Made by a program: the position numbers and the translations under genes
Part shown: one piece after another, positions 24,892 to 55,464 of the stretch
Numbering within the stretch: the stretch's first letter is position 1
How the letters are laid out: every line of letters starts with the position of its first letter
Notes under the pieces: generated by a model
Database searches by the model: none
The model's input: only the letters and a program-made list of their open reading frames with translations
What the model was told of the DNA's origin: nothing
From: a virus
DNA length: 64,000 nucleotides
Direction: 5' to 3' (one strand)
IMG/VR virus record: IMGVR_UViG_3300034284_001491
Span: 1 to 64,000 of that record

Positions 24892-25053
24892 ATGAAAAAA
24901 GGTTCCGGGTGTAAAACACCTAAAATGAAAGATGGTGGTTCATTAAAACCAGTTGATGCATCTAAGAATCCAGGACTTTCTAAACTTCCTACAGAAGTAA
25001 GAAATAAAATGGGTTATGCTAAAAAAGGTGGATCTGTAAAAAAGAAAAAATAA
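24892..25053 (+). CDS. 53-aa basic peptide with two xKxGG motifs
   Basis: Hand translation MKKGSGCKTPKMKDGGSLKPVDASKNPGLSKLPTEVRNKMGYAKKGGSVKKKK*. Confidence 0.75.
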   Translation: MKKGSGCKTPKMKDGGSLKPVDASKNPGLSKLPTEVRNKMGYAKKGGSVKKKK

Positions 25054-25217
25054 TGGCCACTAAAAAACATCCTGGCTTTAAAGCCGTACAAAAGAAAATA
25101 GCAAAACAACAAGGTGTATCTATGGAATCTGCAGGAGCTATTCTTGCAAGTTCAAGTAGAAATGCATCTGCTGCAGCTAAAAAGAAAAATCCCCGTTTAA
25201 AAAAAGTAAGGGGATAA
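25053..25217 (+). CDS. 54-aa basic peptide
   Basis: Hand translation MATKKHPGFKAVQKKIAKQQGVSMESAGAILASSSRNASAAAKKKNPRLKKVRG*; TAATG coupling. Confidence 0.75.
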   Translation: MATKKHPGFKAVQKKIAKQQGVSMESAGAILASSSRNASAAAKKKNPRLKKVRG

Positions 25218-25243: not shown

Positions 25244-25402
25244 ATGGCAACTAAAGGAAAAATGGGTCCAACTAAAGGACCTAAAAAAAAAGAAATGAAA
25301 AAAGAAATGAAAAAAGAAGAAATGATGATACCTCCTATGAAAAAAGGTGGTTCAACACCTTCTTATAAAAAAGGTGGGTCAATGGGTAAAAAAATGAAGT
25401 AA
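25244..25402 (+). CDS. 52-aa K/M-rich peptide with two xKKGG motifs
   Basis: Hand translation MATKGKMGPTKGPKKKEMKKEMKKEEMMIPPMKKGGSTPSYKKGGSMGKKMK*. Confidence 0.75.
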   Translation: MATKGKMGPTKGPKKKEMKKEMKKEEMMIPPMKKGGSTPSYKKGGSMGKKMK

Positions 25403-37249: not shown

Positions 37250-37608
37250 GAGTTTCAAAACTATTCAATATAGATATATATTCCTGTAAAGTTCAACTTA
37301 TTGTAACTGATGATGTATATAATGAAGAAAGAGCATTATATGCAAAGAATGGTGAAGATCATGAAGACTATGTTGCTTCAGATGGTATTACATTAAACTT
37401 TGAGAATGATATCTATTATGTAGTTTTTTCCACTAATTCTGTATCACATAACCTTATTGCTCACGAGTTATATCATTTAGTATGTTCTATATGTGATTAT
37501 AGAAATATTGAAGAAGAAGAAAGTAGAGCATGGTTATGCGGATACCTTACAGAAATGTTTTATAAATTCTTAGATAAGAAAAATATCACTATTAAACATG
37601 GCTTCTAA
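37246..37608 (+). CDS. Small zincin-like metallopeptidase (HExxH)
   Basis: LIAHELYHLV followed by EESRAWLCG third-ligand-like helix. Confidence 0.6.
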   Translation: MRVSKLFNIDIYSCKVQLIVTDDVYNEERALYAKNGEDHEDYVASDGITLNFENDIYYVVFSTNSVSHNLIAHELYHLVCSICDYRNIEEEESRAWLCGYLTEMFYKFLDKKNITIKHGF

Positions 37609-40600
37609 AGATAAAAATACTGGACAAAATCTAAATATAGAATCGGCTGTATTTAATAAAGGAATGATGATGGACTTTGATGATCTCATTGTCCCAGAAG
37701 GTGTTTGGATTAGAGCCAGAAATGCAGTTAATAATTCCCAAAATGGGAACATAGGTGTTATTGGAAATGAACCTTCTAATGTTGAATGTTTAACAGTAAA
37801 CTATGACGTTATCGGTTTAATATATATTTCAGATGGTACATGGGTTATATTTTTAACTAATGATATAGCATCTGAAATTGGTATATATAGAGAAGATGGT
37901 TGTTCTTATACAAGATTATATAAAGAACTATCAAATACTTGTTTAAATTTTAAAAGAACAAATTTAATAACAGGGATATCAAGAGAAAAGGTTGATTGTA
38001 CTCGACAAATATATTTTGCTGATGGTTTAAATCCAGATAGATCTTTTGCAATTAAACAAGATTATTCTGGTATAGTAGATGATTATTATCAAGAAACCAT
38101 AACTAATGTTCAAACTGGAGAAGATCCTGATGAAGATTGTGAAATTGTTCAATATAATTTTAATCAATTAGATTGTGATAAGATTCGTTTAAATCCTTTA
38201 ATGAATCCACCATGTGTTAAATTAAAAAGAGCTACATATTCTGGTTCATTATTAAATGGAACATATCAAGTATTTATTGCGTATACAATTGATGGTCAAA
38301 GAGTAACGGATTATATAGGAAAAAGTAATCCACAATCACTATATAAACATGAAAATGCTAATTCTTCTTTAGAAGTTATTATTGAATCTATAGACGAAAG
38401 ATTTGATGAATTTGAATTAGTGGTTGTAAGTTTTTATAATGGTCAGACCCAAGCTAAAAAAATGGGTATATATAGTACTCAAGTTGGTAGTATATTTATA
38501 GATATTATAAGTAATGAATTATCTAATATTCCTACAGGATTATTACCATTAGTATCCACTATTTATGAAAAATCAGAGGCTATTTATAAAAATAATAATT
38601 ACGCATTAAGAGTTGCACCGACATCTAAATTTGATTTTAATTATCAACCTTTAGCTAATTTAATTGAAACCGAATGGTTTGCTGCTGCATACCCAGAAGA
38701 TTATTATTATAAAGGAGGAAATAAAGCTACATATCTAAGAGATGAAATTTATTCATTTTTTATAAGATGGGTATATGCTGATGGTCAAAAATCACCATCA
38801 TTTCATATTCCTGGTAGAGCAAAAAATACATTTGATTCTCAAATTATTGGACCATTACAATTAGCATTTTTAAATGATACTCCTGAAGAAATAGATAATC
38901 AAAGATGGAGATATGAAAATACTGCAACAAGAACTTCACCATCTCTTCCAAATCCTATTAATTATATTACAGGTCTAGGAATTAATACAGATGATGGAGG
39001 TGTTATAGTAGCAAAAGGAAAAATGGGATATTGGGAATCTACAGAAGAATATCCTAATTATAAACCTGATATTTGGAATTCAAGTGCACATAATTGGACA
39101 GGTGTAAATACACCAAGTCCAGAATATGATTTGTGTGGTCAAAGAATTAGACATCATAAATTTCCTGATACAGATATTATTCCACATTTTGCATCTGAAA
39201 ATGATACTATTGCACAACTACCACTACCTAATTTTAATAATGCAAATTGTAATGCTTCATATGAAGTATTACCTAATACTATTTTAGGATTCACTAATTA
39301 CTCAAATACAAAAATTATATTATTAGGTGTAAATTTTAATAATATTAAACCACCAGTTGATAATAATGGAAATCTTATACCTGGTATCATTGGATATGAA
39401 ATATTAAGAGGAAATAGATTAGGTAATAAAACTATACTTGCAAAAGGTGTTGTCACTAATTTACGAGAATATAATTTACCAGAATATATTGATTCTAATA
39501 TTCAAAGTCAATATAAACAGAAAGGATTATTTTTAAATTATCCATTTAATGATTTAAGAAAAGATGAACTTTTATCTACAATTAAAGTTGATGGTGGTGT
39601 AAATAATTCTTGTCGTACTAATGATTATCCTTTACTTGGACAAGATTCATCAACATTATTTTCAAATAAATTTATAGGTTTTCATTCTCCAGAAACAACA
39701 TTTTATAATTCATTCTTAGATATTGATGAAATTAAAATTACAGGAGAATTAAATGGAGTGGCAAATGGTAGATTTGTTGAAGTAAATAAACATCCTAAAC
39801 ATGCTTTACCTGCAGATATAGCATTTATATTATCATTATTCTTTGGATGGCTTACATCAAGAAATGCATTAGGATTAACTATACTTGGAATTGGTGGTGG
39901 TAATACACAATATTTAACTCAAGCAGGTTCAACACAAAGTGTAACTACAGATAATGATTTATTATCTGCTCCAATTGCAGGTGCAATTTCTAAACCTATT
40001 CAAAGAATATATTATACAATTATGTTTTCTCAGAGTTATCTGGATGCAATTATTAGTATTATGGCTGATAGACAGTATGCATTACAACATATAGCTCATT
40101 GTTACTATTCCAAGTATACACCTGGAATAAAGAAAACTAGAAAAATAAAAAATGCAAGTTATATAGGATCAAATAGACAACAAGTATCAGAAAAATATAT
40201 TATAAACAATATTTATAGAAATAGATTTCTTTGTATTGAAACAGAAAATAATTTTATTGAAAAACCTTTACTAACTGATACATCTAGATATTCAGTGGAT
40301 AAGGTTCTAGGAATAAATGATATAAGTTATGAAGATCCAACTAATAAAACTGTTAGTACAACATCATCATGTTTATATGCATCTTTAAAATTTAAATTAA
40401 GAAATATATATGGTCAATTAGATCAAATAAGACAATTACCAATATCTACTTGTATTCACACTATTAATCAAAATAATAGAAATGCTGTAAATTCTACAAA
40501 TTATACAATATTTGGAGGAGATAATTATATTGGTAGATACACTGAAAAAAATACTTTCTTTTTCTTTTATGATTGGTTAAGTGGACAACCAGATAGATTT

Positions 40601-42532
40601 GAATATGATTATAGAAAATATTCTATGATTCCATATCCAAGATATTGGATAAATACAGAAAAATATATTACATCAAAAGTAATTCAAGATTTAATTCCAG
40701 GACTCGGATGTGAAGAGGAAGGAGATGATAATGCACTTAATACTCTAACATATCAAGATAGATTTCCAAGCGATCAATCATCACTATCTAGAAAAAGAAA
40801 TGTAACTGGATTTAATTTAGAGGCTATTAGTGGTTTATTTTGTAATGGTGACGAAGTACTATTTAGAATAGATGGTTGGTTTTATTTATTTTATTCAGGA
40901 GTAAAAGATTTTTATGTAGAATCTGAAATTAATTTAGCTCAAAGAGATCATGATGATTTAATAGAAACAAGACATTATGATCATAAAGAATTCACTGATA
41001 TAAATCAAATGTTTAATTCTGATATAATTAAAGAATTAAACTATTATAAATATGATCAATCATTAAGTGTAGATAGATTTTATAATATCTACACCACTTT
41101 TTCTATAATTCAACCAAGATGGTATAATCCTATTGTTGCAGAATCATGTTATGTATATTCTCCAAAAAGAATTATATATTCTCTACCAATTAAAAAAGAA
41201 AATAGAATAGATTTTTGGAAATTTTATCTTGTTAATAATTATTATGAATTTAATTCTAAAATAACATCTGTTAGTCCAATATCTAAAAGTGGTGCTCTTG
41301 TTCATTTTAAAGATATTAGTCCTGTAGTATTTCAAGGAGTAGATGAATTAAAAACAGATCTTGGAACTAAACTTACAGTTGGAGATGGTGGATTATTTAG
41401 TCAACCATTACAAAATATTGTAAATACAGATGCACCATATGAATATGGTTCATGTCAAGATAGATATTCAATTATTAATACACCATTTGGAATATTTTGG
41501 ATCAGTCAAGATCAAGGTAAAATATTTAACTATGCTGGAAAACTTGATGAAATTTCTAATAAAGGAATGAGATGGTGGTTTAATAAATATCTTAAATATT
41601 TTTTATTAGAAGATTTTCCAAATTTTGAAGAAACCCAAAATCCAGTAATAGGTGTTGGGTGTCAAGCAATTTATGATAATAAGAATCAAATCATATATTT
41701 TACAAAACGTGATTTTAAACTTTTAACATCGGGTGTTTTAAGATATATAGGTAATGATGAATTTGAAACAATTGTAGGAAGATTACGAGTTAAACTAGGT
41801 GATCCGAGATTTTTTGAAGATGCTTCTTGGACAATATCTTATGATCCTAAAATGCAAATCTGGATATCATTTCATGATTGGCATCCTGAGTTAATGATTC
41901 CAGAAAGAAATACATTTACTACAATTAAAAATAAAGTATTCTATAAACACAATAATACATGTACAAGTTTCTGTAATTTTTATGGAGTAAATTATCCTTT
42001 TGAAATTGAAACAGCATTATCTACTGGGCAATCCGTGACTACAGCAAGAAATGTTGAGTATATGTTAGAATCATATAGATATACAAATAACTGTATAGAT
42101 AATCATCACTTACTTGATCATAACTTTGATAATATGATTATTTATAATAGTGAGCAAATTTCAGGTGTACTTAATTTAGTACCACATCCTAAAAATGATC
42201 CTATTACAATGATATCATATCCTATAATAAATCCCAATAGTATTGATGTTTTATATAGTAAAGAAGAAAATAAATATAGAGTAAATCAGTTTTGGGATAT
42301 TACTAGTGATAGAGGAGAATTTACTAGTAATACAAATATTTTATGGGAAACTGCAACTAATGGATATGCTAAAGCAATTAGACCAGGATCAGTGAATTAT
42401 GCTAAATCTCCATTAGAAAGAAAGAAATTTAGACATTATTCTACTAGAGTTATTCTAAGAAAAAATATCTCTAACAATATTAAGATGTTTTATAAATTGT
42501 TTAATCTTAAACAAGCACAGTCTTACCGATGA
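37598..42532 (+). CDS. Tail stabilisation/muzzle protein (1644 aa)
   Basis: F.KGM..D...ARNA N-terminus, YFADGLNP, YLRDEIYSF.I, WTISY..WISFHDW.P; size and position match crAss-like tail stabilisation proteins. Confidence 0.75.
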   Translation: MASKDKNTGQNLNIESAVFNKGMMMDFDDLIVPEGVWIRARNAVNNSQNGNIGVIGNEPSNVECLTVNYDVIGLIYISDGTWVIFLTNDIASEIGIYREDGCSYTRLYKELSNTCLNFKRTNLITGISREKVDCTRQIYFADGLNPDRSFAIKQDYSGIVDDYYQETITNVQTGEDPDEDCEIVQYNFNQLDCDKIRLNPLMNPPCVKLKRATYSGSLLNGTYQVFIAYTIDGQRVTDYIGKSNPQSLYKHENANSSLEVIIESIDERFDEFELVVVSFYNGQTQAKKMGIYSTQVGSIFIDIISNELSNIPTGLLPLVSTIYEKSEAIYKNNNYALRVAPTSKFDFNYQPLANLIETEWFAAAYPEDYYYKGGNKATYLRDEIYSFFIRWVYADGQKSPSFHIPGRAKNTFDSQIIGPLQLAFLNDTPEEIDNQRWRYENTATRTSPSLPNPINYITGLGINTDDGGVIVAKGKMGYWESTEEYPNYKPDIWNSSAHNWTGVNTPSPEYDLCGQRIRHHKFPDTDIIPHFASENDTIAQLPLPNFNNANCNASYEVLPNTILGFTNYSNTKIILLGVNFNNIKPPVDNNGNLIPGIIGYEILRGNRLGNKTILAKGVVTNLREYNLPEYIDSNIQSQYKQKGLFLNYPFNDLRKDELLSTIKVDGGVNNSCRTNDYPLLGQDSSTLFSNKFIGFHSPETTFYNSFLDIDEIKITGELNGVANGRFVEVNKHPKHALPADIAFILSLFFGWLTSRNALGLTILGIGGGNTQYLTQAGSTQSVTTDNDLLSAPIAGAISKPIQRIYYTIMFSQSYLDAIISIMADRQYALQHIAHCYYSKYTPGIKKTRKIKNASYIGSNRQQVSEKYIINNIYRNRFLCIETENNFIEKPLLTDTSRYSVDKVLGINDISYEDPTNKTVSTTSSCLYASLKFKLRNIYGQLDQIRQLPISTCIHTINQNNRNAVNSTNYTIFGGDNYIGRYTEKNTFFFFYDWLSGQPDRFEYDYRKYSMIPYPRYWINTEKYITSKVIQDLIPGLGCEEEGDDNALNTLTYQDRFPSDQSSLSRKRNVTGFNLEAISGLFCNGDEVLFRIDGWFYLFYSGVKDFYVESEINLAQRDHDDLIETRHYDHKEFTDINQMFNSDIIKELNYYKYDQSLSVDRFYNIYTTFSIIQPRWYNPIVAESCYVYSPKRIIYSLPIKKENRIDFWKFYLVNNYYEFNSKITSVSPISKSGALVHFKDISPVVFQGVDELKTDLGTKLTVGDGGLFSQPLQNIVNTDAPYEYGSCQDRYSIINTPFGIFWISQDQGKIFNYAGKLDEISNKGMRWWFNKYLKYFLLEDFPNFEETQNPVIGVGCQAIYDNKNQIIYFTKRDFKLLTSGVLRYIGNDEFETIVGRLRVKLGDPRFFEDASWTISYDPKMQIWISFHDWHPELMIPERNTFTTIKNKVFYKHNNTCTSFCNFYGVNYPFEIETALSTGQSVTTARNVEYMLESYRYTNNCIDNHHLLDHNFDNMIIYNSEQISGVLNLVPHPKNDPITMISYPIINPNSIDVLYSKEENKYRVNQFWDITSDRGEFTSNTNILWETATNGYAKAIRPGSVNYAKSPLERKKFRHYSTRVILRKNISNNIKMFYKLFNLKQAQSYR

Positions 42533-45500
42533 AAAAATCATTTAAAAAAAATACAAGAGAAGGATTACCAAACGGACCTAATGAAATAAAAACAACACAA
42601 TCTGGATTTATTATTTCAGAAAGAGGTCAATGGGATTTTCCAGGATTACCTACAATGATTCCTTCTAATAATATTACAATGAAGAATGTTCCATATCCTG
42701 TATTTGGATTTGATGATTTAGGATATAGTCAAATGATGTATCCTGGTATGGATTATAAATTTCCAGGAAATCAAGTGTATGAGTTACCTATAGCACAAGT
42801 TGGCAAGGAAAATAAAGTTCCTTCATATGAAGATTTATATAAAGAATATAATATTGTTCAATCTCAAGTAAATGATTATTTAAGAAATAATAAAGGACGA
42901 GAAGAAGAAAGAAATTATAGACTTAGATTAAATGATACAGCTAATAAACTTATAGAACAAGGAATAGATGTAAGAGAAGAAGGATATATTCCAGATCATA
43001 TAAAAAATAGTCCTGAATTTAGAGCTGATTGTATAAGTGGTACTTGTAGAATTTTAAATGAAATTGGAGAACCAACTAAATATTATAGCAACACTCTTTT
43101 GCAAGATGATGTAATTGCTGGAAAAGTTCCAGGAAGAACATTTGATTATAGTGTTAAAGGAATTGTTCCTGGGGATATTTTACAATTTAAATCAGATGAA
43201 AAAAGTTATCCGTTTCATGCTTATTTAATCCAAGATATTTCTGAACCGGATGCAAAAGGTAACAGAACAGTTAAAGTTGCTGGATCTTCAGGAAATGGAC
43301 CATTGAGAAATGAAATATATATATTAACCCCAGATAATAAAATTACAGATACATGGGGTAATCCAAGATACGTTCAAACTATAAGAAGAGAAAGATTTGA
43401 TAAAAATCCAGTACCTAATGATCTTTTAAAAAGAAGAGATGAATTAAAATCTAATTTAGAAAAATACTATCCTAATGCATTTAAAAATTTTGATGTAGAT
43501 ACTGATGCATTTAAACCAACAGCTTTTATAAGAAATAACAATAATAAATTAAATCTAGGTAATCCAGGATTCCCTTCAGAAACTATTAATTTAGATGAAT
43601 CTAAATTAGATGAAATATTAACTCAGTTTTCTGATCCAGATTTTAAAAGTAATTTTATGAAGCAACAAAAAGTCAGTAATGATGAGTATGATGCTATTGT
43701 AAAAAATGTAATTGGTATATATGGTGCAGAATCCAAATTTGGAACAGGATATGGTAGAGAGCCTTTATGGCTACAAAAATTTTTAGCAGGTCCAAAAGGA
43801 ATTCAATCAGTGGGACCTTTTCAGATTAATCCTAAAATGCTTAAAACAAAAAGATTTTCTAGAAATGATTTATTTGATCCTATTTTAGGTTCTGAAGCTG
43901 CTGCAATATTTCTTGCTGAAAATTTACCATTACTTAGAAATAGAGCTGGTTTAAAACCTGGAGATGATCACTATAGTGAAAATTTAAATAAAGATAACTA
44001 TTTAGAATATATTCCATATTTAATGAATCAACAAGGTTTATTATTAGGAGATAATTATACAGAGGAAGAAAAACCAGGAAGAATAGCAAGATTTTTTGGA
44101 GCTGACCCTACACCTACACCAGAAAATAAATTAACGGGTGATTCAGAATATAATCAAGCAGTAAAAAGATATATTGAAAATCTTGGTGTACAAGCAATTC
44201 CTGCTAGTATGTCTAATCCTGTTACAATATCTGATTATCAAGATGGTGGTATATTTAATCCCAATACAGATGAGTTTATTGGATTTGTTGATGAGTTGCC
44301 TAAAGCTCAAGATGGTGAAGAAACCAAAGCTAAACCCATAACTAATATTGATCTAGCACCTATTGAAATAACTGCTAAAAGAACAATTTGGGATAAATTA
44401 AAAGGATTTGCAAGACAATTCCCAGGAGTTGATTTTGATGAATATCAAAGATCTAAAGCATTACAAGAAAAATATCAAAATGCTTGGTTTCCTGAATCAC
44501 CTAAAAATTTACAATTTATAGAACAAAGAGCACTAGAAGATGGTAAAAGTGCTTATAGACCTAGTACACTACAATTTAATCCTATTACTGGTGAAATAAT
44601 GCCTGCTAGTGGAAGAATAGATCCTGATGATACTTTTGATTTAGCTTTATTACCTGCTAGTCTACCTTTTAAAGCTACAAGTAGATTAGGTAAAATAGGA
44701 TTAGGTGCTATTGAAATGGTAAATCCAATTAGTGGATTTCGTAATTTATTTCCAACTTATAAAAATATTTATAGAATAGAACCTACATCATGGTCTAAAG
44801 ATCCTACTGATGCTTTAAGTGGAAGATGGTTTGGTGAATTAGAGGAAATGCCTTTTTATGTAAAAAATTTAAAAGATAAAGATGCTGGTTATAGAATAAT
44901 GAGAAAAAAAGTAAGTGAAAAGAAGTGGAAAAAAATATCAGGTGAAAATATGCCAGATGAAGCAAAAAAAATGAGTATTGGTCCAGGAAAATATGGTACT
45001 TATGATAATGCTTCTAAATCTGGTGAATTATCTCAAGCACAAGCAAGAAGATTAACTCTTGGTGCACATATACCTTCTGATGTAGAACATGCTTCTTTAA
45101 ATAAAAATCTTATAAATTTAAATGAAGGAATTCTTCCAGAAGAAGTAGTTAGCAAAATTAGATTAGGAAATCCAAGAAAATTTTTATCTTCTTCTGGAAA
45201 AGTAGAATATCCTGCTGGAGAATTAGGAAAAGAAGGTGCAACAGATCATGTATTTCACTTATTATATCAGCAGTTTAAAAATCAAGGATATGAAAAACCA
45301 ATATTAGGAATTCCTAGAAAATACTTTCCATTTAAAAATGGAGGTTTATATAATTCATATATGTATCAGGTAGGTGGTCCTAAAGATGATGATGATAAAA
45401 AACGTGTGTTAGTAACTCCTAATGGATTAGTGGCCCCTACATTAAATACATTTGAAGTAATAGAAGAAAGAACACCATTACAAAAAATATATGATGAAGA

Positions 45501-48500
45501 ATTTCAAAAGAGACTAAATGCCGATAAAGCATTTCAAGAAAAATGGTATCCTGGTCAAGAATATGATCCCACTAATATAGAAAAAAGAGCTGTAATGGCA
45601 GCTAATGATAAAGTTTCTAAATATATAATAAATCAAAGAAATAAAGAAGGTAAGACAAGAAATAGTTATGCTAATAGACAAGAGTTTTTAAAAGCATTAA
45701 CTGATGAAGAAAAAAAATATATAGGGCAATCTAATTTAGCAGGTTATTTAGAACCCGATGCAGGTTCTAGATTTAGAGCAGCTTGGCATAATATAAATCA
45801 TTTAGGGCAAGGATTTTTAAACACCGATCCTGATTTAACACAAGAAGAAGCTAATAACATTAGTAGATGGAATGCATTTGCACCACTTGGTGTACCATTA
45901 AATGCATTAAGAGCTACTCTAACAGGAGATAATATTGGAGAAGCTTTTAAAGGAGAAACTTCTAGACCTTGGATGTCAGCAGATGAGCAACCATTAGCAA
46001 GTGGTATGGAATCAACTGTTCCATATTTAAATACAGTAGGAGATGTTGGAATGGATCCTCTTAATTTTTCAGGTATGGGTATTGGTCAAGGATTAAGTAA
46101 AGTATTAAATCCATTTAATAAATTCAAAAGATTAAATCCAAATATAACTTCTTCTGTAGATAATGTTGGTAAAGGTTTAACACAAGCATCTAAACGAGCT
46201 TGGCAAATGGAAGAACTTCCAGGATTACATTTAAAATCTACAATGGAAGGAGAAGCTATTTCTAAAATAGTAGAACCTAAAACAGGTTTAATAAATACAG
46301 AACAAGCATTAGCTATTATAGGTAAAGAATCAGGAGGTGCTGATAAAGTTGCTCTTATACGAAAAGGACTAGGAGATAAGATTCCTAAAAAGATGGACTT
46401 TAATGAGTTCAGAAAAATAACTCAAGAACAACTTATTCCTTTAGAAAGACAATTTAGTACACAAAGCAGTAATTATGGTATAGATAGAATTGGATATCCT
46501 GGTGCTACAGATGTAGAAGCAAATATTGATGGTACTTTTAATATTTTTGGAAATCCTACAAAATTTAAAACAAGAGAAGAGGCTGAAGAATTTTTAAAAT
46601 TACAATTACCATTAGAAAATCAAACTCTTATATTAGGAAACAAATCTAAATTTGGCAGAGGATCTCATGCTCATGGTAATCCAGAAGAAACTCTTGGTCA
46701 TGTTCACTTTTTAAGGGATGCTGAAACTCCTGATGTATTAACAGTAACACAAATACAATCTGATGCTTTTCAAGGTACATATAGAATAATGCCAAAAGAT
46801 TCTAAAAATTTAACTGCTTTAGAAAAACAACAAAAATCTTTAGCAAGAATGGAAGAATTACAAGAGCGTAACAAGGCTATTCTTAATAAAATGAAAACTG
46901 AAGGTGTTGATGAAGCAGGATTACCAGTTCTAGATTATCAAATAAGACAATTTGAAGATATAGTAAAAGCACAAGAAAACACTAACATATTTAAAAAAGC
47001 GGATATTGAAAACTTTACTCAAAAACAACTACTTGATAAAAACCATCAAGAAAGATACTTACAAGAACTTGTAGATTATGCAGGAAAAAGAGGTGATGTA
47101 AATAAGGTTAGAGTGCCTACAAGTGAAACTGCTGCTAAAGTTCAAGGGTACAATCCTATTCAAGAATCAACACTAGGTCCTGTAACAAAAAAACAACTTG
47201 ATGAATCATCTACATTTGAAGAATTTTTAACACTAAAGAAGGAACAAATAGGTAATTATAAATTAAATAATGAAGAATTAAACACATTTAAAAAAATATA
47301 CAATGATTATAAAGCTGGTAAGTTAGGAAAAGTGTATGATCCAGCTCATACAACTATTCTTAAAAAATATTCAGAGCAACCTAAAACTATTAAAAAATTA
47401 TTTGGTAAAGAACCTACAATAGTAACAGATAGTAAAGGTAATACATGGTATGAATTTGATATACCTGAAAAGTTTAAAAAAGGTAAAGGAGAAATTAAAG
47501 CTTTTGGACTAGCACCATATATAGGATTAGGAGGAGCAGGAGCATTAGGAGCAGGAGCATTACAACAAAATAACCAATCTAAAAAACAATCTAAAGGTGG
47601 AAATATATATGCTAATGGAGGATTAGTGAAAGCACAAATAGGTATACAAACGATGAGACCAGATGCAACATCTGTTAATATGAATTTACCTCAAATAGAT
47701 CTATCAAAAAAATTAAAATTAACTGAAGAAAATAAAAAACGTATACAAGAATTATTTCCAGATAAAAAACAAGCTTTGGAAGAATTAGAATCATTGTATT
47801 ATAATGCATATGAGGATTTTGGAAGTAGATTTAATAAATTAAATACTTGGCCTGAATTATCTGGTAAAACAATTAATCTAACAACAGATAGATATCGTGG
47901 TGCTAATATTCCTATTGAATATCTTAACATGTTAACTGATTCTGCTAAAAGATTTAAATTAGATCCTTATTTATTATATGCAATTGCTGGAAGAGAATCA
48001 ACATTCGGACAAGGTAAGAATAATGAAGGTAGAAATGTTTCTCCAATAAATCTTGTTTCAGGTTGGAATATAGATGAACCATATAGACCGTATTCATATG
48101 AAAGATTCTTAGCCGATAAGAATAGTCCCAATATAATAAAATCAAAAAGTAGTAGTGGACTTTTCTTTCATACTCCTGAAAAAGAAAATGAATTAAATGA
48201 ACTTAATAATTATATTATTGAAAATAATTTATTTGATGAATACAAAAATAAAATATCTAAATCTCCTAAACTTCAATACACTAATCCATTTGATTTAGTT
48301 TCAGAATTTATTGTTAATAAAGGAATTGAAAAATATAATCCAGGAGATCCAGATTATAAAAATAAAATCAATAAAGAAATTGAATTATTAAGAAGTGATC
48401 CTGAATTTACAAAATACTATAATAGTATGAATAAAAAATTTGGTGGTAGTCTAGAAAAATACCATAATCCAAATAAGTATGGAGGATCTATATATAAAAA

Positions 48501-48552
48501 TGGAGGAACGTATAATCCTAATACTGATGAGATAATAGGTTTTATAGACTGA
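42529..48552 (+). CDS. Multidomain putative cargo polyprotein (2007 aa): NlpC/P60-like domain, two lysozyme/SLT-like domains and other modules
   Basis: DCISG..PGDILQF..HAYL; GAESKFG..SVGPFQI..LFDP; LDPYLLYAIAGRESTFG; modules separated by xxxGG motifs. Confidence 0.7.
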   Translation: MKKSFKKNTREGLPNGPNEIKTTQSGFIISERGQWDFPGLPTMIPSNNITMKNVPYPVFGFDDLGYSQMMYPGMDYKFPGNQVYELPIAQVGKENKVPSYEDLYKEYNIVQSQVNDYLRNNKGREEERNYRLRLNDTANKLIEQGIDVREEGYIPDHIKNSPEFRADCISGTCRILNEIGEPTKYYSNTLLQDDVIAGKVPGRTFDYSVKGIVPGDILQFKSDEKSYPFHAYLIQDISEPDAKGNRTVKVAGSSGNGPLRNEIYILTPDNKITDTWGNPRYVQTIRRERFDKNPVPNDLLKRRDELKSNLEKYYPNAFKNFDVDTDAFKPTAFIRNNNNKLNLGNPGFPSETINLDESKLDEILTQFSDPDFKSNFMKQQKVSNDEYDAIVKNVIGIYGAESKFGTGYGREPLWLQKFLAGPKGIQSVGPFQINPKMLKTKRFSRNDLFDPILGSEAAAIFLAENLPLLRNRAGLKPGDDHYSENLNKDNYLEYIPYLMNQQGLLLGDNYTEEEKPGRIARFFGADPTPTPENKLTGDSEYNQAVKRYIENLGVQAIPASMSNPVTISDYQDGGIFNPNTDEFIGFVDELPKAQDGEETKAKPITNIDLAPIEITAKRTIWDKLKGFARQFPGVDFDEYQRSKALQEKYQNAWFPESPKNLQFIEQRALEDGKSAYRPSTLQFNPITGEIMPASGRIDPDDTFDLALLPASLPFKATSRLGKIGLGAIEMVNPISGFRNLFPTYKNIYRIEPTSWSKDPTDALSGRWFGELEEMPFYVKNLKDKDAGYRIMRKKVSEKKWKKISGENMPDEAKKMSIGPGKYGTYDNASKSGELSQAQARRLTLGAHIPSDVEHASLNKNLINLNEGILPEEVVSKIRLGNPRKFLSSSGKVEYPAGELGKEGATDHVFHLLYQQFKNQGYEKPILGIPRKYFPFKNGGLYNSYMYQVGGPKDDDDKKRVLVTPNGLVAPTLNTFEVIEERTPLQKIYDEEFQKRLNADKAFQEKWYPGQEYDPTNIEKRAVMAANDKVSKYIINQRNKEGKTRNSYANRQEFLKALTDEEKKYIGQSNLAGYLEPDAGSRFRAAWHNINHLGQGFLNTDPDLTQEEANNISRWNAFAPLGVPLNALRATLTGDNIGEAFKGETSRPWMSADEQPLASGMESTVPYLNTVGDVGMDPLNFSGMGIGQGLSKVLNPFNKFKRLNPNITSSVDNVGKGLTQASKRAWQMEELPGLHLKSTMEGEAISKIVEPKTGLINTEQALAIIGKESGGADKVALIRKGLGDKIPKKMDFNEFRKITQEQLIPLERQFSTQSSNYGIDRIGYPGATDVEANIDGTFNIFGNPTKFKTREEAEEFLKLQLPLENQTLILGNKSKFGRGSHAHGNPEETLGHVHFLRDAETPDVLTVTQIQSDAFQGTYRIMPKDSKNLTALEKQQKSLARMEELQERNKAILNKMKTEGVDEAGLPVLDYQIRQFEDIVKAQENTNIFKKADIENFTQKQLLDKNHQERYLQELVDYAGKRGDVNKVRVPTSETAAKVQGYNPIQESTLGPVTKKQLDESSTFEEFLTLKKEQIGNYKLNNEELNTFKKIYNDYKAGKLGKVYDPAHTTILKKYSEQPKTIKKLFGKEPTIVTDSKGNTWYEFDIPEKFKKGKGEIKAFGLAPYIGLGGAGALGAGALQQNNQSKKQSKGGNIYANGGLVKAQIGIQTMRPDATSVNMNLPQIDLSKKLKLTEENKKRIQELFPDKKQALEELESLYYNAYEDFGSRFNKLNTWPELSGKTINLTTDRYRGANIPIEYLNMLTDSAKRFKLDPYLLYAIAGRESTFGQGKNNEGRNVSPINLVSGWNIDEPYRPYSYERFLADKNSPNIIKSKSSSGLFFHTPEKENELNELNNYIIENNLFDEYKNKISKSPKLQYTNPFDLVSEFIVNKGIEKYNPGDPDYKNKINKEIELLRSDPEFTKYYNSMNKKFGGSLEKYHNPNKYGGSIYKNGGTYNPNTDEIIGFID

Positions 48553-48590
48553 GAAAATTTTTGTAAATTGTACAATTATACTATATAGTA

Positions 48591-51500
48591 ATGAGAAAAG
48601 CATTAGTTAAAAGAGGTGATAAAATTGTTGAGGTAACAATTGATGAAAACACCTATAAAACAGGGGGTTCTAATCTTATTAAAAGAAAAGATGGATCATA
48701 CTCCCAAAGAGGACTATGGGATAATATCAGAGCTAATAAAGGTTCTGGAAGGAAACCCACTAAACAAATGCTTGATCAAGCAAAAAAAATTACTAGAAAT
48801 AAAAAACAAGAAGGTGGTGAAGAAATATATGGTAATTATATGTTACCTGAATTTGAAGTAGAAGAAAATACAGGAATGTATAATCCAAATATTGTTGGAC
48901 CTTCTGCTCCAAGGTATATACCTTCTGAAACAGGATTTATACCAAATCCAAATTATACTACAGGAAGTGGATCAACTGAGTCTATTCCACTTGAATTATT
49001 TGCTGCACCTATTGCTAGAGGTTTAAGTTCAGCTATTGGTATGATTCCTCAAAGTTGGGTGACTACAGCAGGTACAGCAGGAAGTTTACTAGGATTAGAA
49101 TCTTGCTCTACAGGTAAATGTAGAGGATTAAAAGCTCATCCTAACTATAAAAAATCTTGGGGAAAATCTAAAAAAAGAAAAAGACAAGAAGGTGGTGAAG
49201 AAAATCAATTTGAAGAATTAGTTGATAAAATAGAAGATGCTTTAGAACAAGGTGCAAATCCACAAGAATTATTTCAACAACTAATTAAAATGGGTGTTGA
49301 TGAAAATTCTGCAAAGGAAATTATACAAACAGCTATTCAAGAGATTCAGGGTGAAGGAGAAGAAAATGAAGATGAAGAATCTAATAGAATGATGGCTTAT
49401 GGTGGATCAGCTGATCCATGTCCACCTAATTATTATTGGGATGAAGATGAAGGAAAGTGTGTTCCTATGTCACAAAGTCTTCCTAGTAGAGATGACTTAT
49501 ATAATAATCCTGAAATGCAAAAGGATTTAGATAGATTAAATTATAAAAGAAATATTCAACAATATAAAATAGATTATAACAATAATAAAAATAAATTTTA
49601 TGAAGATAATTATAAAGGACCAAAAATAAAGGATGAAAAGGGTAGAGTACTACCTGATTATAATTCTCCTGAATATAAAGATTTTAAAATATTATATGAT
49701 GAATATTTAAAAACTTTACCTAATCCTGATAGAAGTTCATTTAAACTTCCAGTAGATTATCAACAAAAGAATTTTTATCCTAAAGAAGGTGAATGGGATG
49801 AAGATTCTAAAAAAGAATTTAATAGATTTTTTAATCCTGAACCTACTCAACAAGAAAAAGAAGAAGGAATTTTAAAAGAATATTTAAAAAGTAAACCTCA
49901 AGTAAATCCGGATTTTTATTATAATGATATTCCAGCTGATGATCCAGTACAACAATATAAAATGAATCAGGATCAATTACGTGATTATAGATATGAAGAG
50001 GAATGGTGTCCATGTTATAAAATGAGGGAAGAACTAATTGCAGGGAGACCAGTTATGAAAAAAATCTGTGTACCTTGTGAACAAGCAAAGATGGGTGGGA
50101 ATCTTGATAAATTTATGCAAAAAGGTGGAGACAAAAAACAATTATCTTCATCAGTAAAAACTGCAAGTAACTCAGATGTACTAAGTCAAACTTATAATTA
50201 TCAAGATCAAAATAAAAGTAATACCACAAATGTAAGTAGAATTATAAATTCTTATGATGATGGTAGTCCAAATACAACTAGTTATTCTTATTTAAGTCCA
50301 GAAGAAAATTTCTTTTACAATACATCAACAGGAGTAAATTTTAATAACGCTGAACCAATTACTCCAGAACAAATAGATTTCTACAAAAGAAAAATTGCTG
50401 AAGGATTAAATATACCTTATGATTTTAAAGAAGGTGGATCTTATAGAGTTTATAAAACTAGTGAACGAAAAGGTAAAACTCATAAGGTAGTAGGTCCAGG
50501 TGGTGTCACTAAATATTTTGGAGATCCAAAACTGGGAGAAAGAAGTAAATCTAAATATGGTAAAAAAGCTTTTTATGCTAGACATAAAAAGAATCTAGAT
50601 AATAATCCGTTCTTTAGAGCATATGCTAGAGCAACATGGGCAGAAGGTGGTGAACCTTCATACATGAATGAACCAGAATATAAAACAAATTCATTCATTT
50701 CTAAAGTAAAAGAAATGGGTCAAATAGAAAATGATAAGAATTTGTATAATAACATTATGGAACAATCTCAGCAGATGCTAATGCAAATGGGTGGTATCCA
50801 AAAAATTGGATACAATGGTATTAGCAATAGTAATCTTGCAAGTATGCAAGCTATGGAGGGTGAGTATAATCAGAATTCTAATATATTTAAAGCATTTACA
50901 GATATTAATAAAGCTGTTATAGATTCTAAAGGAGATAAGATTAAGGCAGCAATGGAAATGGCTGGTGCAGCGGGTGCAGCATATCTAGGATTACCTCCTG
51001 GAGTTGGGAAGGAAGTAGGTAAGATTGCTGGTGAGGCTACAGTTGGTGCAATTAGTAATACAAATAAAACTACACAAAATGTAATAAAAAATCTTGAATC
51101 ACCAACAGCATATAGTGATTTTAAACAAGGAATAAATAATCAGAGTACAGCACAAAATCCTACACAACAACAGCAGTCTGCAAGTAGTGGTTCAAATTCA
51201 TTATCTGGACTATCTGGAATTTTAGGAGGAGCTGGTGGTGGTTCAGGTGGTGGATCTGGAGATGCTTTAGGATCAATGTTAAAAGGTGTAATGTCTAATC
51301 CTGAAATGTTAACAAGTTTAATTGGAGCTAGAAGAGGGGGTACACTACGTAAATTTGTAACCGCAGGAGAAAATCAAATAAATTTACCAACAAATAATTG
51401 GTGGGATATTGGTAATACAACATCTTTTTCAAGTAATCCTCAAAATATTACTGCACCAAATCAACCTCAACAATATACAATTGCAGATCAAAGTTTAAAT

Positions 51501-53777
51501 ACACCAGCTTTATCTGCAACTCCAGATAATCTTGGAGTATGGAGTGATGATCTAAAAACATATACTCCACCTTCATTTGGTCCTAAAAATCAAATGAATC
51601 AACCTGGAATTACGACAGACATAACTAATCCTAAACCACCAGTTCAACAAGATCAAAATAAAAATAATAAATCAACAGCTGTAATTGGTCCTGCTATAGC
51701 TGGTTTTGTTCAATCTTTTGGAGATAAAAAAAGAGCAAAAGAACAAGGTACTAATATAGGACAAGCAACGTCAAATTCTGATAGCGTATTTGGATATAAT
51801 AGAATAGAAGATAGAGGAGATTTTGAAATAAATACTGGTAGACGAAAACCTAATCAATATATAATGGGATCACTTCAAGGTGTACCAGCATTGTCATCTG
51901 CTAAATATGGTGGTATACAAAAACCTGGAGTATATATGTCTTATCCTACTGCCACTCCAGAATCTGTAGTATATGGTAAACCAGATAAGAAAATGTCTAA
52001 TACATTAGGTCCAGTAGATAGAGATAAAGCAAATCTAGAAGCTGAAGGTGGTGAAACAGTTATGACACCTGCAGGTGATGATGGTATTCCTAAATTCTTT
52101 AAGATTGGCGGTCAAAGACATAGCCAAGGAGGAACACCTTTATATCTTCCAGAAAATTCATTCATATTCTCAGATACTAGATCAATGTTATTAGGAAAGA
52201 ATATGCTTGAAGAATTTGGTATTACAGGTAAAAAGAAAAAGACACCTGCAGAAGTTGCTAAAATTCTTGGTAAAGGATATGAAAAATATGTAAAGATTAT
52301 TCAAGATCCTAATTCAGATTCTATTGAAAGAAGAACAGCAGAGATGATGATACAAACTCAAATAAATAATTTGGGTAAATTAGCATTAGCTCAAGAATCT
52401 AAAAAAGGTTTTCCACAAGGTATCCCAATGATATCTGTTCCATATATGGCATCAATAGGTGTAAGTGCAGAACAACTGTTGCCACAAATACCACAAGGTA
52501 TGCCACAAGGTAATATGATGCCTCCTGAAATGATGCAACAAATGATGCAGATGCAACAGATGCCTATGGCTAAATATGGTTTGCAGAAATATCAAGTTGC
52601 TGGAGAAACTAATGTGTTTGGAGACCCTAATGCACCATTTCCTACATCTAGTCCTTCAACTCCAGAAGATAGAAATATAGCACAATATATTTTAGGAAAT
52701 TTACAAAGTTATTTTACTTCTAAACCAGAAGAAGAATCTATTGAAGCTAATATTAAACCAGTTGAAATTGTTTCACCAGTAAAAGGATTTGAAACAATAG
52801 AAGATGTAGATGCTTTTATTTTAAAAGGTGATGAATTTGGACAAGATTTTAATGCTTTATATAATGCTTATTCACAATCACTTCAAGCAATTGATAAATT
52901 AAGATATGGACTACTTAATGGTACTGTTCCATTAGAAGAATATGAAAAAGAAAGAGATGCAATTAATAGTAGAATTGATGAAATAAAAACTGAATTAAAA
53001 AATAGTGGAAATCAAATTCCTTGGTATAAAAGTTCTGGAATTATCCATAATTCAACTGTAGATATACTAGAAAATATGCAAGGAATTATGAATGAAGAAA
53101 AAAATAAATTAAAAGTTAGAGCTGCTGATTTAAGAAAGTTTAGAACTCTTCAAAATAATGTATCTTTTCTTGAAACAGAAAAACAAAAGATTCTTAAACT
53201 TTTAAATTCAGATATAGATGATCTTGAAAAAGTACGCCTTAGAAGAAGATTAACAAATCTTAATGATGCTTTAAATTATGAAACTGATAGAACAAATCAA
53301 TTTGGAGAAAGAGCATTTAAGATACCTAAACCGACATTTGAGGATATAATAGAAGAAACAGAAACTTCAGCTAATCTCCCTGTAATAAATAGTCGCTTTA
53401 AAACTCCGCGAGTATATGGGGATGAGCATACTGCTCAATGGTTTGGTCCATTAGCTGCAGCAACGGGTAAATTAATTAAAAAATATACATATGATGATTA
53501 TATAAAAGATTATGAAAGTAATTCTATAGGTACTACAGTTAAACCATCATATGAATCACAACAAGGTACATTAAATAATATACTAAGTACAGCAACACCA
53601 GATACAGCAGCTGTACCTGTACAAAATACTGTTCCAACACAAACAGCACCAGCAACTACTCCAAGTCAACCTAGTAAACAAACTAAATCAAATAGTTCTA
53701 ATTCAAACAATAATAAATCATTTATATCTAAAATTAAAAAAGTAGAAGATAAAGATTTAGATTTATTTAAAAAATAA
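48591..53777 (+). CDS. Low-complexity modular putative cargo polyprotein (1728 aa)
   Basis: Eleven xxxGG motifs separating short modules; NLEAEGGETV..RHSQGG..IFSD domain. Confidence 0.7.
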   Translation: MRKALVKRGDKIVEVTIDENTYKTGGSNLIKRKDGSYSQRGLWDNIRANKGSGRKPTKQMLDQAKKITRNKKQEGGEEIYGNYMLPEFEVEENTGMYNPNIVGPSAPRYIPSETGFIPNPNYTTGSGSTESIPLELFAAPIARGLSSAIGMIPQSWVTTAGTAGSLLGLESCSTGKCRGLKAHPNYKKSWGKSKKRKRQEGGEENQFEELVDKIEDALEQGANPQELFQQLIKMGVDENSAKEIIQTAIQEIQGEGEENEDEESNRMMAYGGSADPCPPNYYWDEDEGKCVPMSQSLPSRDDLYNNPEMQKDLDRLNYKRNIQQYKIDYNNNKNKFYEDNYKGPKIKDEKGRVLPDYNSPEYKDFKILYDEYLKTLPNPDRSSFKLPVDYQQKNFYPKEGEWDEDSKKEFNRFFNPEPTQQEKEEGILKEYLKSKPQVNPDFYYNDIPADDPVQQYKMNQDQLRDYRYEEEWCPCYKMREELIAGRPVMKKICVPCEQAKMGGNLDKFMQKGGDKKQLSSSVKTASNSDVLSQTYNYQDQNKSNTTNVSRIINSYDDGSPNTTSYSYLSPEENFFYNTSTGVNFNNAEPITPEQIDFYKRKIAEGLNIPYDFKEGGSYRVYKTSERKGKTHKVVGPGGVTKYFGDPKLGERSKSKYGKKAFYARHKKNLDNNPFFRAYARATWAEGGEPSYMNEPEYKTNSFISKVKEMGQIENDKNLYNNIMEQSQQMLMQMGGIQKIGYNGISNSNLASMQAMEGEYNQNSNIFKAFTDINKAVIDSKGDKIKAAMEMAGAAGAAYLGLPPGVGKEVGKIAGEATVGAISNTNKTTQNVIKNLESPTAYSDFKQGINNQSTAQNPTQQQQSASSGSNSLSGLSGILGGAGGGSGGGSGDALGSMLKGVMSNPEMLTSLIGARRGGTLRKFVTAGENQINLPTNNWWDIGNTTSFSSNPQNITAPNQPQQYTIADQSLNTPALSATPDNLGVWSDDLKTYTPPSFGPKNQMNQPGITTDITNPKPPVQQDQNKNNKSTAVIGPAIAGFVQSFGDKKRAKEQGTNIGQATSNSDSVFGYNRIEDRGDFEINTGRRKPNQYIMGSLQGVPALSSAKYGGIQKPGVYMSYPTATPESVVYGKPDKKMSNTLGPVDRDKANLEAEGGETVMTPAGDDGIPKFFKIGGQRHSQGGTPLYLPENSFIFSDTRSMLLGKNMLEEFGITGKKKKTPAEVAKILGKGYEKYVKIIQDPNSDSIERRTAEMMIQTQINNLGKLALAQESKKGFPQGIPMISVPYMASIGVSAEQLLPQIPQGMPQGNMMPPEMMQQMMQMQQMPMAKYGLQKYQVAGETNVFGDPNAPFPTSSPSTPEDRNIAQYILGNLQSYFTSKPEEESIEANIKPVEIVSPVKGFETIEDVDAFILKGDEFGQDFNALYNAYSQSLQAIDKLRYGLLNGTVPLEEYEKERDAINSRIDEIKTELKNSGNQIPWYKSSGIIHNSTVDILENMQGIMNEEKNKLKVRAADLRKFRTLQNNVSFLETEKQKILKLLNSDIDDLEKVRLRRRLTNLNDALNYETDRTNQFGERAFKIPKPTFEDIIEETETSANLPVINSRFKTPRVYGDEHTAQWFGPLAAATGKLIKKYTYDDYIKDYESNSIGTTVKPSYESQQGTLNNILSTATPDTAAVPVQNTVPTQTAPATTPSQPSKQTKSNSSNSNNNKSFISKIKKVEDKDLDLFKK

Positions 53778-53787
53778 TAATTTTAAT

Positions 53788-55464
53788 ATGTATACTCCTT
53801 ATAATATATTTGATTATAATTTACCTAAATATAATCCAGGTGGTCAAAGTAATAATCCTGATAAACCAGATCCAGGTACCTATAAAATAGGTGATATTAT
53901 TGATATCAGTGGTGAAAAAAAAGTTGTAACTGGTTGGGATCCAGTAGCAGGTAAATACACTACAGAAAAATGGAATCCTTTAAAAGGAGATATTGGCGAC
54001 TATACAAAAGATTATGAAGCTTTAGAAAAAGCATTAAATGATCCGGATGTAAAAAAAGCATTATGGGAAGAATACAAAAAAGATAAAACAACTTATAAAG
54101 TTACAAGTACAGGTAGTAAATATATTAGAGGTATAAAAGATGCAGATGATCTTGTAAAAAAATATCTCCAAGCTGAAAAAGCCATAATGGCTATTAATGC
54201 TAATTATTCTGCTGATGAAATTAAAAAATTAAATTTAGATAACAATTCGGCAAATAGAAAAAAATTATTTGAAGAAGTAGGTATTAATTTTAATCCGGGA
54301 GATATTGCTATTTTTCAAAAAGCTTATTATGATTTAGCAGATATATATAATAGTACAAGTACACCAGATGCTATAAAACAAAAATTAGGAGACTTTGATT
54401 GGGAAGCAAAAGGAGATATAGACACTGATTCACCTGAATATAAAACATCAGGAAAAACAGGAGTTACTAAAGGATATGTTAGTCAAGTAGATGATGCTTT
54501 TGGAGATAATACTGTTTTTCAATTTAATAGATTAAAACAACCTACAATAACACAATCTACAATAACACAAAAACCACAACAAACCTCTCCACCAATTACT
54601 CCTGGGAAAATGGGTCCACCAGTACCTAGGGCAAAACCAGAATTTTGGACTCAAGATAAAAATCTTGTAACAAATGCATTAATAGATTATTTTCGTACTA
54701 AAAAAATTAATCCTTGGGCTCCACCTATTGATTTACAAGAACCTCAATATACATTACTAGATCCTACTTGGCAATTACAAAATAATGCTGCATTAATGAA
54801 TCAGCAATTACAAGGACTTGGGGCATTTGGTAATTCACAATCTTATCTTGCTAATGCTACAGCTTTATCTGGTAAAGCATCTGAACAATCACAAGGTATT
54901 TTAGCAGAATATGATGCTAGAAATGCAATGATTCAAAATCAAGGTGAACAAGCTAAAACAGCAATAAGGAATCAAGAAAATCTTGCAAATGCTGAAAGAT
55001 TAACAAATTTATATGATAAAAATGCTATTGCTGAACAACAATATTTAAATACTGAAATAGCAAGAAGAAAAAATATTGTTGATGCTACTAATAATGCTTG
55101 GACAAATAGAGGACTTACCCAATCTCAAAATATAATGAGTTATCCTTTTCAAGTGGATCCAGTAACAGGATATACTTATTATGATCCTAGACTTGCCACT
55201 GATATGCAACCTTCAGAAACAGATTTTGAAACTAGACAAAAAAGATTAGATGATTTATTAACAAGTACTAAATATCAAAATCAAGATATAGAAACTATAT
55301 ACAAAATTTTGTATCCTGATGAAAATATAGGAAATCCTTATTATAGATCGTCACAAAGAGGAAGACAGAGATATCAACAAAATAATTATGATCCAAGATA
55401 TGATCAATATTTTATGTATCCTGGAGCTTCTGGTGCTAATCCATATGGTTATCCATTTGGCTAA
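53788..55464 (+). CDS. Putative virion cargo/ejection protein (558 aa)
   Basis: Q/N/A-rich helical C-terminal half; N-terminal PKYNPGG. Confidence 0.6.
   Translation: MYTPYNIFDYNLPKYNPGGQSNNPDKPDPGTYKIGDIIDISGEKKVVTGWDPVAGKYTTEKWNPLKGDIGDYTKDYEALEKALNDPDVKKALWEEYKKDKTTYKVTSTGSKYIRGIKDADDLVKKYLQAEKAIMAINANYSADEIKKLNLDNNSANRKKLFEEVGINFNPGDIAIFQKAYYDLADIYNSTSTPDAIKQKLGDFDWEAKGDIDTDSPEYKTSGKTGVTKGYVSQVDDAFGDNTVFQFNRLKQPTITQSTITQKPQQTSPPITPGKMGPPVPRAKPEFWTQDKNLVTNALIDYFRTKKINPWAPPIDLQEPQYTLLDPTWQLQNNAALMNQQLQGLGAFGNSQSYLANATALSGKASEQSQGILAEYDARNAMIQNQGEQAKTAIRNQENLANAERLTNLYDKNAIAEQQYLNTEIARRKNIVDATNNAWTNRGLTQSQNIMSYPFQVDPVTGYTYYDPRLATDMQPSETDFETRQKRLDDLLTSTKYQNQDIETIYKILYPDENIGNPYYRSSQRGRQRYQQNNYDPRYDQYFMYPGASGANPYGYPFG

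Follow-up and report, generated by a model that had tools for sequence, protein, structure and literature searches.

The predicted cargo locus

The subject of this study is a recurring Gly-Gly peptide, here called a seam, in two large proteins encoded on a virus record of the IMG/VR database (IMGVR_UViG_3300034284_001491). The window, that is the whole stretch of DNA analysed, comprises positions 1 to 64,000 of this record, which has a length of 84,461 bases and is by estimate about 70% complete. Marker genes recognized by PHROGs and Pfam identify the source as a crAss-like phage. The muzzle (tail tip) gene at 37598..42532 (Pfam crAss_MUZ, E 1.6e-31; virion structural protein in PHROGs) is followed by the genes for protein A (P0001; 2007 amino acids, aa; 42529..48552) and protein B (P0002; 1728 aa; 48591..53777), a third cargo gene of 558 aa (53788..55464), an open reading frame (ORF) of 899 aa and giant ORFs, one of which encodes the motif DYDID. 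The muzzle gene, the three cargo genes and all of their segments described below are located on the plus strand. In crAss001, the muzzle gene gp44 is followed by the genes for the cargo proteins C1 (gp45) and C2 (gp46) and, from gp47 onwards, for the RNA polymerase (RNAP) proteins (PMC10172136). Protein B has a C1-type gene position, the cargo genes lying just 3′ of the muzzle gene as in crAss001.

In translation, protein A consists of a conserved N-terminal leader, four modules and a C-terminal tag, and this agrees with the first-pass annotation of this DNA, which had the motifs divide the protein into a leader plus four payloads. In protein B, a series of small cassettes (about 1100 aa) precedes a C1-like domain, which is followed by a C-terminal part. 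No PHROG or Pfam family was found for either protein, searched whole or as five segments (best match SLT_2 at E 0.17), and tblastn of both against 50,697 phage records returned nothing at E <= 1e-5. Positional homologues in four IMG/VR loci are full of the same Gly-Gly pattern.

Distribution of the Gly-Gly motifs

Recomputing the motifs from the translations reproduced all of the coordinates given in the first-pass annotation. The leader of protein A (residues 1-92; 42529..42804) ends in the seam YELPIAQVG, with AQVG at residues 89-92 (nucleotide, nt, 42793). Seam 1 (44236..44319) is composed of YQDGG at residue 570 (44236), an internal copy of the C-terminal tag (IFNPNTDEFIGFVD) and ELPKAQDG, the AQDG of which occupies residues 594-597. 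Seam 2 extends from FKNGG at residue 935 to YQVGG at residue 946 (45331..45378), seam 3 contains QSKGG, YANGG and LVKAQIG (47587..47643), and a terminal cluster of KKFGG, NKYGG and YKNGG (48433-48507) is followed by the C-terminal tag TYNPNTDEIIGFID, the whole spanning 48433..48549. The motifs of protein B, with residue and nt position, are YKTGG (22; 48654), KQEGG (72; 48804), RQEGG (198; 49182), MAYGG (268; 49392), AKMGG (499; 50085), MQKGG (509; 50115), FKEGG (612; 50424), WAEGG (683; 50637), MQMGG (731; 50781), ARRGG (913; 51327) and AKYGG (1104; 51900), besides the variants AKYG and YQVAG near nt 52570. The next gene does open with a YNPGG motif as described, since KYNPGG stands at residue 15 of the 558-aa protein.

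The regular expression of the first-pass annotation matches six times in protein A (0.65 expected) and ten times in protein B (0.64 expected), and none of 2000 composition-preserving shuffles of either protein reached the observed count, so that the enrichment predicted against shuffled sequence was found. With 16 matches in 3735 aa, the two proteins together reach a density of 4.28 per 1000 aa, compared with 0.25 for the remaining 37 ORFs (4 matches in 15998 aa). The expected rarity in structural genes also holds, with zero matches in the terminase, portal, major head protein (MCP) and muzzle. The expression had been fitted to proteins A and B themselves, and independent support was therefore sought in relatives. 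Among 150 representatives with a C1-like domain, an aromatic residue or Met occupies position -1 or -3 in 50% of 1062 Gly-Gly contexts outside the conserved domain, compared with a per-position background of 11.8%; the domain was masked in only 98 of the 150, and some of its own Gly-Gly pairs remain in this count. The sole other matches of the expression in the window (FQLGG twice, AASGG, FQSGG) lie in two Gly-rich ORFs at 4207-6021 and 8438-10729, which have no PHROG family and may encode fibre-like proteins.

The leader and its relatives

A search of shorter proteins matched residues 1-130 of protein A in 23 of 47 candidates at E <= 1e-3, with differing payloads. The AlphaFold2 (AF2) model of this region shows a beta domain at residues 20-88 with a predicted local distance difference test score (pLDDT) of 87-94, which drops below 50 at seam residues 91-95 before helices follow. 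The model had no clear fold match among 48,161 chains; the best one (Z 5.3) lay mostly on the helical hairpin after the seam. In 22 leader proteins, Pfam identified VanY in eight payloads, YkuD in two, and SLT, ART-PolyVal, DUF5872, DUF6321, Peptidase_M91 and Glucosaminidase in one each. Relatives thus fuse the leader to VanY, YkuD, SLT or ART domains and gain or lose cassettes at the seams, and the idea of interchangeable modules was borne out.

Seam anatomy and protein ends

A full seam in this clade has three parts, namely [aromatic/Met]-[K/Q/A]-x-G-G, a peptide of about 14 residues with the pattern x-[F/Y]-N-P-N-T-D-E-F-I-G-F-[IV]-D, and E-L-P-K-A-Q-x-G(G). Protein A holds one full seam internally (seam 1) and terminates with the first two parts (GGTYNPNTDEIIGFID), whereas the third part, as E-L-P-x-A-Q-x-G, closes the leader in almost all relatives. 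The C-terminal tag type of protein A also closes the relatives P0005-P0007 and L006_A, and in 19 of 20 leader proteins the last Gly-Gly is located 2-23 residues before the C-terminus.

Corresponding half seams are found at N-termini. In 127 of the 150 representatives at most 70 aa precede the C1-like domain, and 86 of the 127 open with a [LVMI]-P...G tag, M..[KR]V[RK]IKK[LVMI]-P-K-A-x-x-G or a close variant. The domain follows after more than 200 aa in the other 23, and 17 of these have a Gly-Gly in the 60 aa upstream. The 558-aa protein of the window starts with the half seam MYTPYNIFDYNLPKYNPGG, and its positional homologue L006_C begins MYTQYNMFYPELPKAQGG. Other clades have different tags at the same places: GG[FY]I[IV]EELD ends VanY-type proteins, and GGWLD... 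is found in L002, L004 and P0019. In distant clades too, tags of 7-14 residues that are specific to the clade occupy the extreme ends of the proteins. A fused seam therefore equals a C-terminal tag plus an N-terminal tag, stand-alone genes end or start with one half, and the gene boundaries of relatives fall inside seams; the remark that motifs are paired, the first ending one module and the second starting the one that follows, was thus right.

In two relatives (L002 12346-16647 and L004 12602-15319, gene B) the C1-like domain forms a separate gene. The protein preceding it ends in E-x-D-[IL]-x-E-D-E-I-x-x-L-x-x-x-G-Y-x-V-x-x-[YI], which by eye resembles a SAP/HeH-type helix-turn.

An origin of the seam tag as a copy of the last hairpin of the leader was considered and dropped. 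Only VxELPxAQxG is common to both (219 of 5000 shuffles reach the score), the part upstream of it is not similar (4679 of 5000 shuffles), and BLASTP found nothing.

Module exchange and selection on the peptide

Homology blocks of protein A with relatives start or end at residues 92, 573, 945, 1700 and 1998, each at most 5 residues from a seam; the block of P0006 starts at residue 945 in seam 2 and that of L006_A at residue 1700 in seam 3. Two more ends (649 and 1223) lie away from seams. A binomial test on all block ends was weak, and clean indels were analysed instead. Pairwise global alignments in four groups of relatives contained 236 gaps of 25 aa or more, and 21 of these, with flanks at least 50% identical, were kept; the 215 others were dropped for lower flank identity or redundancy. 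The 21 rows were merged by eye to about 16 independent events. Both edges lie within 6 aa of a Gly-Gly in ten of these, one edge in three and none in three, while 5-22% of background positions are that close. Two of the three events without Gly-Gly sit at the seam variants AQxG or DEL|P. The position of the motifs at module boundaries, for which a comparison with indel breakpoints among relatives had been suggested, is thus supported. As examples, the 481-aa first module of protein A is missing in P0006, whose leader joins seam 1 directly, and P0027 has an insert of 352 aa exactly at FKEGG|SYR of protein B. The cassette at residues 73-198 of protein B (48807..49184), bounded by K[KR]QEGGEE repeats, is missing in P0026 and P0027 as a clean indel with both edges 2 aa from Gly-Gly.

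The same cassette could be taken to indicate that seams are recombination scars or composition-biased linkers with no function as peptides, which persist as cassettes shuffle through them. Direct seam repeats bound cassettes, the two copies of QEGGEE are encoded by the same 18 nt, and seams lie in regions of low predicted order. Against this, identity over these 18 nt is expected by chance in about 1 of 6 cases under the codon bias of the phage, as estimated from its codon table. Of the 14 residues that the two tag copies of protein A have in common, only 7 are encoded by the same codon in both and the other 7 by synonymous codons; the tag has thus been kept as a peptide, on which selection acts. 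On this codon comparison, the idea that the repeated tags arose by gene conversion or a recent duplication of DNA was rejected. In BLAST alignments covering the variable part of protein B, 67 of 71 cells retain the Gly-Gly of a seam and 72 of 107 the three residues preceding it, compared with 208 of 436 cells for other glycines and 43% for other residues, although the cells are not independent of each other. The end tags retained in distant clades likewise speak against mere scars, and we consider this explanation quite unlikely.

The C1-like domain of protein B

The domain at residues 1135-1294 of protein B (51993..52472) is found in 1551 representatives at E <= 1e-3 and in 742 at E <= 1e-30. 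Its AF2 model has a pLDDT above 88 over model residues 41-200, and the pLDDT is below 50 across 35 residues that hold the AKYGG motif ahead of the domain. The top match in VIA-align is chain M of the structure 7QOG (7qog_M), with Z 6.5, a root mean square deviation of 5.0, 100 of 126 residues aligned and 19% identity; this chain is the portal-bound fragment, residues 425-552, of the crAss001 cargo protein C1 (PMC10172136). Foldseek with the domain model found no match in the PDB at E <= 0.001, 7qog_M being listed at rank 42 with E 2.0. The Pfam family crAss_CARG1 (PF25725) gave no match, residues 1100-1310 of protein B remaining without any family at E <= 1, while gp45 itself reaches 2.3e-66. 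BLASTP of the domain against gp45 gave only E >= 6.6, and hhalign of a 31-row profile against gp45 a probability of 3%. The domain is called C1-like with moderate confidence because Pfam, BLASTP and hhalign do not confirm the relation; it is probably portal-binding.

A database protein of 594 aa (P0028) is 100% identical to residues 1135-1728 of protein B, its first residue being an internal Met of protein B directly ahead of the C1-like domain. It may stem from gene calling on a truncated contig or hint at an internal start. Basic mini-domains of the DUF5872 or DUF6321 type were considered for residues 1-270 of protein B and were not supported, neither family giving a Pfam match there.

Further features of the window

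According to PHROG and Pfam matches, the window encodes an endolysin (10741-11202), the large terminase (15470-17668), the portal (17847-20600) and the MCP (22140-23756). Between the portal and MCP genes, an ORF at 20869-22089 encodes an acidic protein of 406 aa without PHROG family, which by eye looks helical and scaffold-like; as a protease candidate it was dropped on these grounds. A tandem trio of small ORFs (24892-25053, 25053-25217 and 25244-25402; 53, 54 and 52 aa) between a 338-aa ORF and a structural gene encodes very basic peptides, which may be internal head or DNA-associated peptides. Two of the three carry two Gly-Gly motifs each, KMKDGG and YAKKGG in the 53-aa ORF (24892..25053, plus strand) and PMKKGG and SYKKGG in the 52-aa ORF (25244..25402, plus strand), in accordance with the four further motifs announced for the peptides at 24.9-25.4 kb. 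Beyond the window, the ORF with DYDID (3616 aa; record position 64325-75175) contains an HExxH motif at residue 626 and the RNAP-type DYDID at residue 2058, and no seam motifs; by its sequence motifs it may be a fused virion RNAP giant.

Proposed uncut joints and end tags

In our interpretation, which we give a probability of about 0.5, the seams remain uncut and act as flexible joints and end tags, conserved in sequence, of modular cargo proteins. Proteins A and B are probably modular virion cargo of the “polyvalent” kind, which would be present in the particle and be injected. In this model, protein A would be built from the leader, exchangeable enzyme modules and the C-terminal tag, and protein B as a string of cassettes ahead of the C1-like domain. 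The glycines would flank the tag of about 14 residues as hinges between independently folding modules, and repeated seams would let cassettes be gained, lost or split off to separate genes. The seams would probably also serve as short recognition or docking peptides that could hold the cargo chain in order while it is loaded and later threaded, N-terminus first, through the portal and tail. Such a part in capsid loading or docking is plausible.

A direct view of one such joint comes from crAss001. The sequence of gp45 reads A425-F426-G427-G428-W, and the deposited chain 7qog_M spans 425..552. The AFGG at 425-428 lies inside this chain, so that in the mature virion no break separates the seam from its domain. 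The other ordered piece of gp45 (214-245) begins 4 residues after the AYGG at 209-210.

Several points weigh against uncut joints. The single intact seam of crAss001 says nothing firm about other seams, and the main text of its structure paper does not address processing, words formed on cleav-, proteoly- or protease being absent from it (PMC10172136). The occurrence of proteins A and B at full length in virions would be an extrapolation for this phage and its close relatives alike. Half seams at gene ends indicate that the modules need no covalent connection, a fact that cleavage would account for just as well. Ubiquitin-like precursors similarly have a short C-terminal tail behind a Gly-Gly. 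The tail barrel of crAss001 is estimated to hold 245 residues per copy (PMC10172136), a number far exceeded by the 1130 residues ahead of the C1-like domain of protein B, so that these would have to be arranged differently in an uncut chain. What ties protein B to C1 is a structural score of middling height (Z 6.5), to which Pfam, BLASTP and hhalign add no support. In the crude binomial test on all BLAST block ends, 3 of 10 ends in protein A (p 0.02) and 6 of 21 in protein B (p 0.1) lie within 6 aa of a Gly-Gly, the former rising to 4 of 10 (p 0.006) when AQxG is counted too. Finally, the record is only about 70% complete, so that a protease could lie in the missing part.

Alternative explanations

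The strongest rival holds that seams are protease sites, at which a phage or host protease cuts after Gly-Gly or within the tag and frees modules and tag peptides in the capsid or after injection. Cleavage at the Gly-Gly motifs was the proposal of the first-pass annotation. The upstream hydrophobic residue recalls the sites of adenain, of African swine fever virus (ASFV) and of ubiquitin-like proteins, and the protein ends have the look of pro-peptides, with C-termini of Gly-Gly plus 2-23 residues and N-termini with 10-26 residues before the seam. Genes are split inside seams, the motif occurs in small basic ORFs adjoining head genes, and the long N-terminal part of protein B would fit the tail badly if left uncut. 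Fused crAss-like RNAP polyproteins have been described as “likely cleaved”, and a zincin-like protease domain was noted in a virion protein (Drobysheva et al. preprint). Two HExxH motifs are indeed found in two downstream giant ORFs, but a zincin fold around them has no Pfam support, and the five cargo ORFs of the window have no HExxH.

A protease fitting the motif was sought in the whole record. In its 84 kb, by estimate about 70% of the genome, Peptidase_C48, Peptidase_C5 and Peptidase_C39 gave no match at E <= 1, and the prohead protease S78 and MPTase-PolyVal (PF18818) gave none either; none of the 30 ORFs scanned with PHROGs was named as a protease. The relatives, 22 of leader type and 26 of C1 type (48 in all), likewise yielded no protease family at E <= 1e-3 beyond one weak Peptidase_M91 match. 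The three giant downstream ORFs, including the 3616-aa one, contain 0, 0 and 1 of the motifs in 8164 aa; the RNAP-type giants are thus nearly free of them, and the motif is not a general polyprotein code. Pro directly after Gly-Gly occurs at 41 of 861 seams (4.8%, background 6.4%) and is little depleted. In crAss001, the gel bands excised from virions include ones at about 150, 270 and over 300 kDa, and the RNAP subunits gp47, gp49 and gp50 are high-molecular-weight virion proteins (PMC6235969), with predicted masses of 262.5, 154.5 and 276.9 kDa (PMC10172136). The bands would correspond to these subunits at full size. With the intact AFGG of gp45, the lack of a match to a Gly-Gly protease, the near absence of motifs from the RNAP giants and the small depletion of Pro, cleavage at the motifs was not supported, and we regard it as doubtful.

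A wider version would make the seam a code with two purposes in thousands of crAss-like cargo proteins, which addresses modules to the particle and also marks where a protease, either brought along in the virion or encountered in the host, cuts after Gly-Gly. It appears rather improbable. If it were true, one gene would deliver several free effectors, as a phage counterpart of polyprotein maturation in adenovirus and ASFV.

Head-to-tail docking and seams as pure linkers or scars are both less likely than cleavage. In the former, the C-terminal tag of one protein would pair with the N-terminal tag of the next, for instance an acidic with a basic strand, and separate proteins would act as one chain and exit in gene order. 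A fused seam does equal a C-terminal plus an N-terminal tag. Split forms end in an acidic, strand-like tag (GGYIIEELD, ...EFIGFID) and many downstream C1-like proteins begin basic (M..KVRIKKLPKA..G). The tag type co-varies with the N-terminus of the next gene in five loci, but with only two clades represented, phylogeny confounds this observation. Prediction of a complex between residues 1940-2007 of protein A and 1-70 of protein B gave a score of 0.13, below the mark of 0.32, and is counted neither for nor against pairing. The next protein of this window has an N-terminus (MRKALVKRGDKIVEV...) other than the canonical basic tag. Such pairing seems unlikely, and seams as scars fare no better given the conservation of the peptide.

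Significance and comparison with known systems

Among the phages of the human gut, Crassvirales are the most abundant, and the loading and ejection of megadaltons of protein are an open question. A seam at the module joints and protein ends of C1-type and leader-type cargo predicts where cassettes are exchanged, where tags or truncations can be placed and which peptides should be examined for docking or cleavage. In uncultured phages, it may further help to recognize injected effectors from sequence. If the seams were cut after all, they would represent a new maturation system in tailed phages. A literature search found no paper linking crAss-like cargo to a Gly-Gly motif or to seam processing, and the review PMC10136315 mentions no protease or proteolysis in connection with cargo.

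The closest known counterpart is C1 of crAss001. Its gene directly follows the muzzle gene, and 7qog_M is the top structural match of the protein B domain. The protein gp45 itself has AYGG or AFGG at 209, 332, 427 and 562 and AEGGG at 263, bracketing its two ordered pieces. Differences are that protein B has about 1100 residues of cassettes before the domain compared with about 420 in gp45, and that the leader-bearing protein A has no counterpart in crAss001. The links to protein B by Pfam crAss_CARG1, BLASTP and hhalign are not significant, and the main text of PMC10172136 describes neither the motif nor processing.

Polyvalent proteins are large and multidomain, have their genes beside virion genes and are presumably delivered along with the DNA; their processing to units has been proposed (Iyer et al. 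2017, PMC5512222). The payloads of leader relatives resemble them in including cell-wall enzymes and ART-PolyVal. With regard to the presence of at least two unrelated effector or enzyme domains, proteins A and B have no significant Pfam domain (best SLT_2, E 0.17), and such domains are seen in the leader relatives. The MPTase (zincin) domain invoked for processing in PMC5512222 has no match in this record of about 70% completeness. The seam peptide is outside the definition of polyvalent proteins, and that article mentions neither a linker, nor glycine, nor crAss.

Processing at GG-X is known from adenain, which recognizes (M/L/I)XGG-X, from pS273R of ASFV, from ubiquitin-like precursors with their Ulp or deubiquitinase (DUB) enzymes, and from C39 double-glycine leaders. 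These systems share with the seams a short Gly-Gly motif with an upstream hydrophobic residue, placed at virion polyprotein junctions or before short C-terminal tails. The hydrophobic residue of the seam stands at -1 or -3 from the first Gly, in contrast to adenain, where only P4 is concerned. A cognate protease family was not found in the record, and one homologous seam is uncut in a solved virion.

In polymorphic toxins, junction motifs such as VENN in CdiA and other pre-toxin motifs reportedly stand before the toxin. Similar to the seam, a short conserved peptide is said to lie there at the exchange point of variable cassettes. Polymorphic toxins are reported to have a single junction, one C-terminal toxin and an immunity gene, whereas the cargo proteins described here have many seams, tags at both ends and the context of virion cargo.

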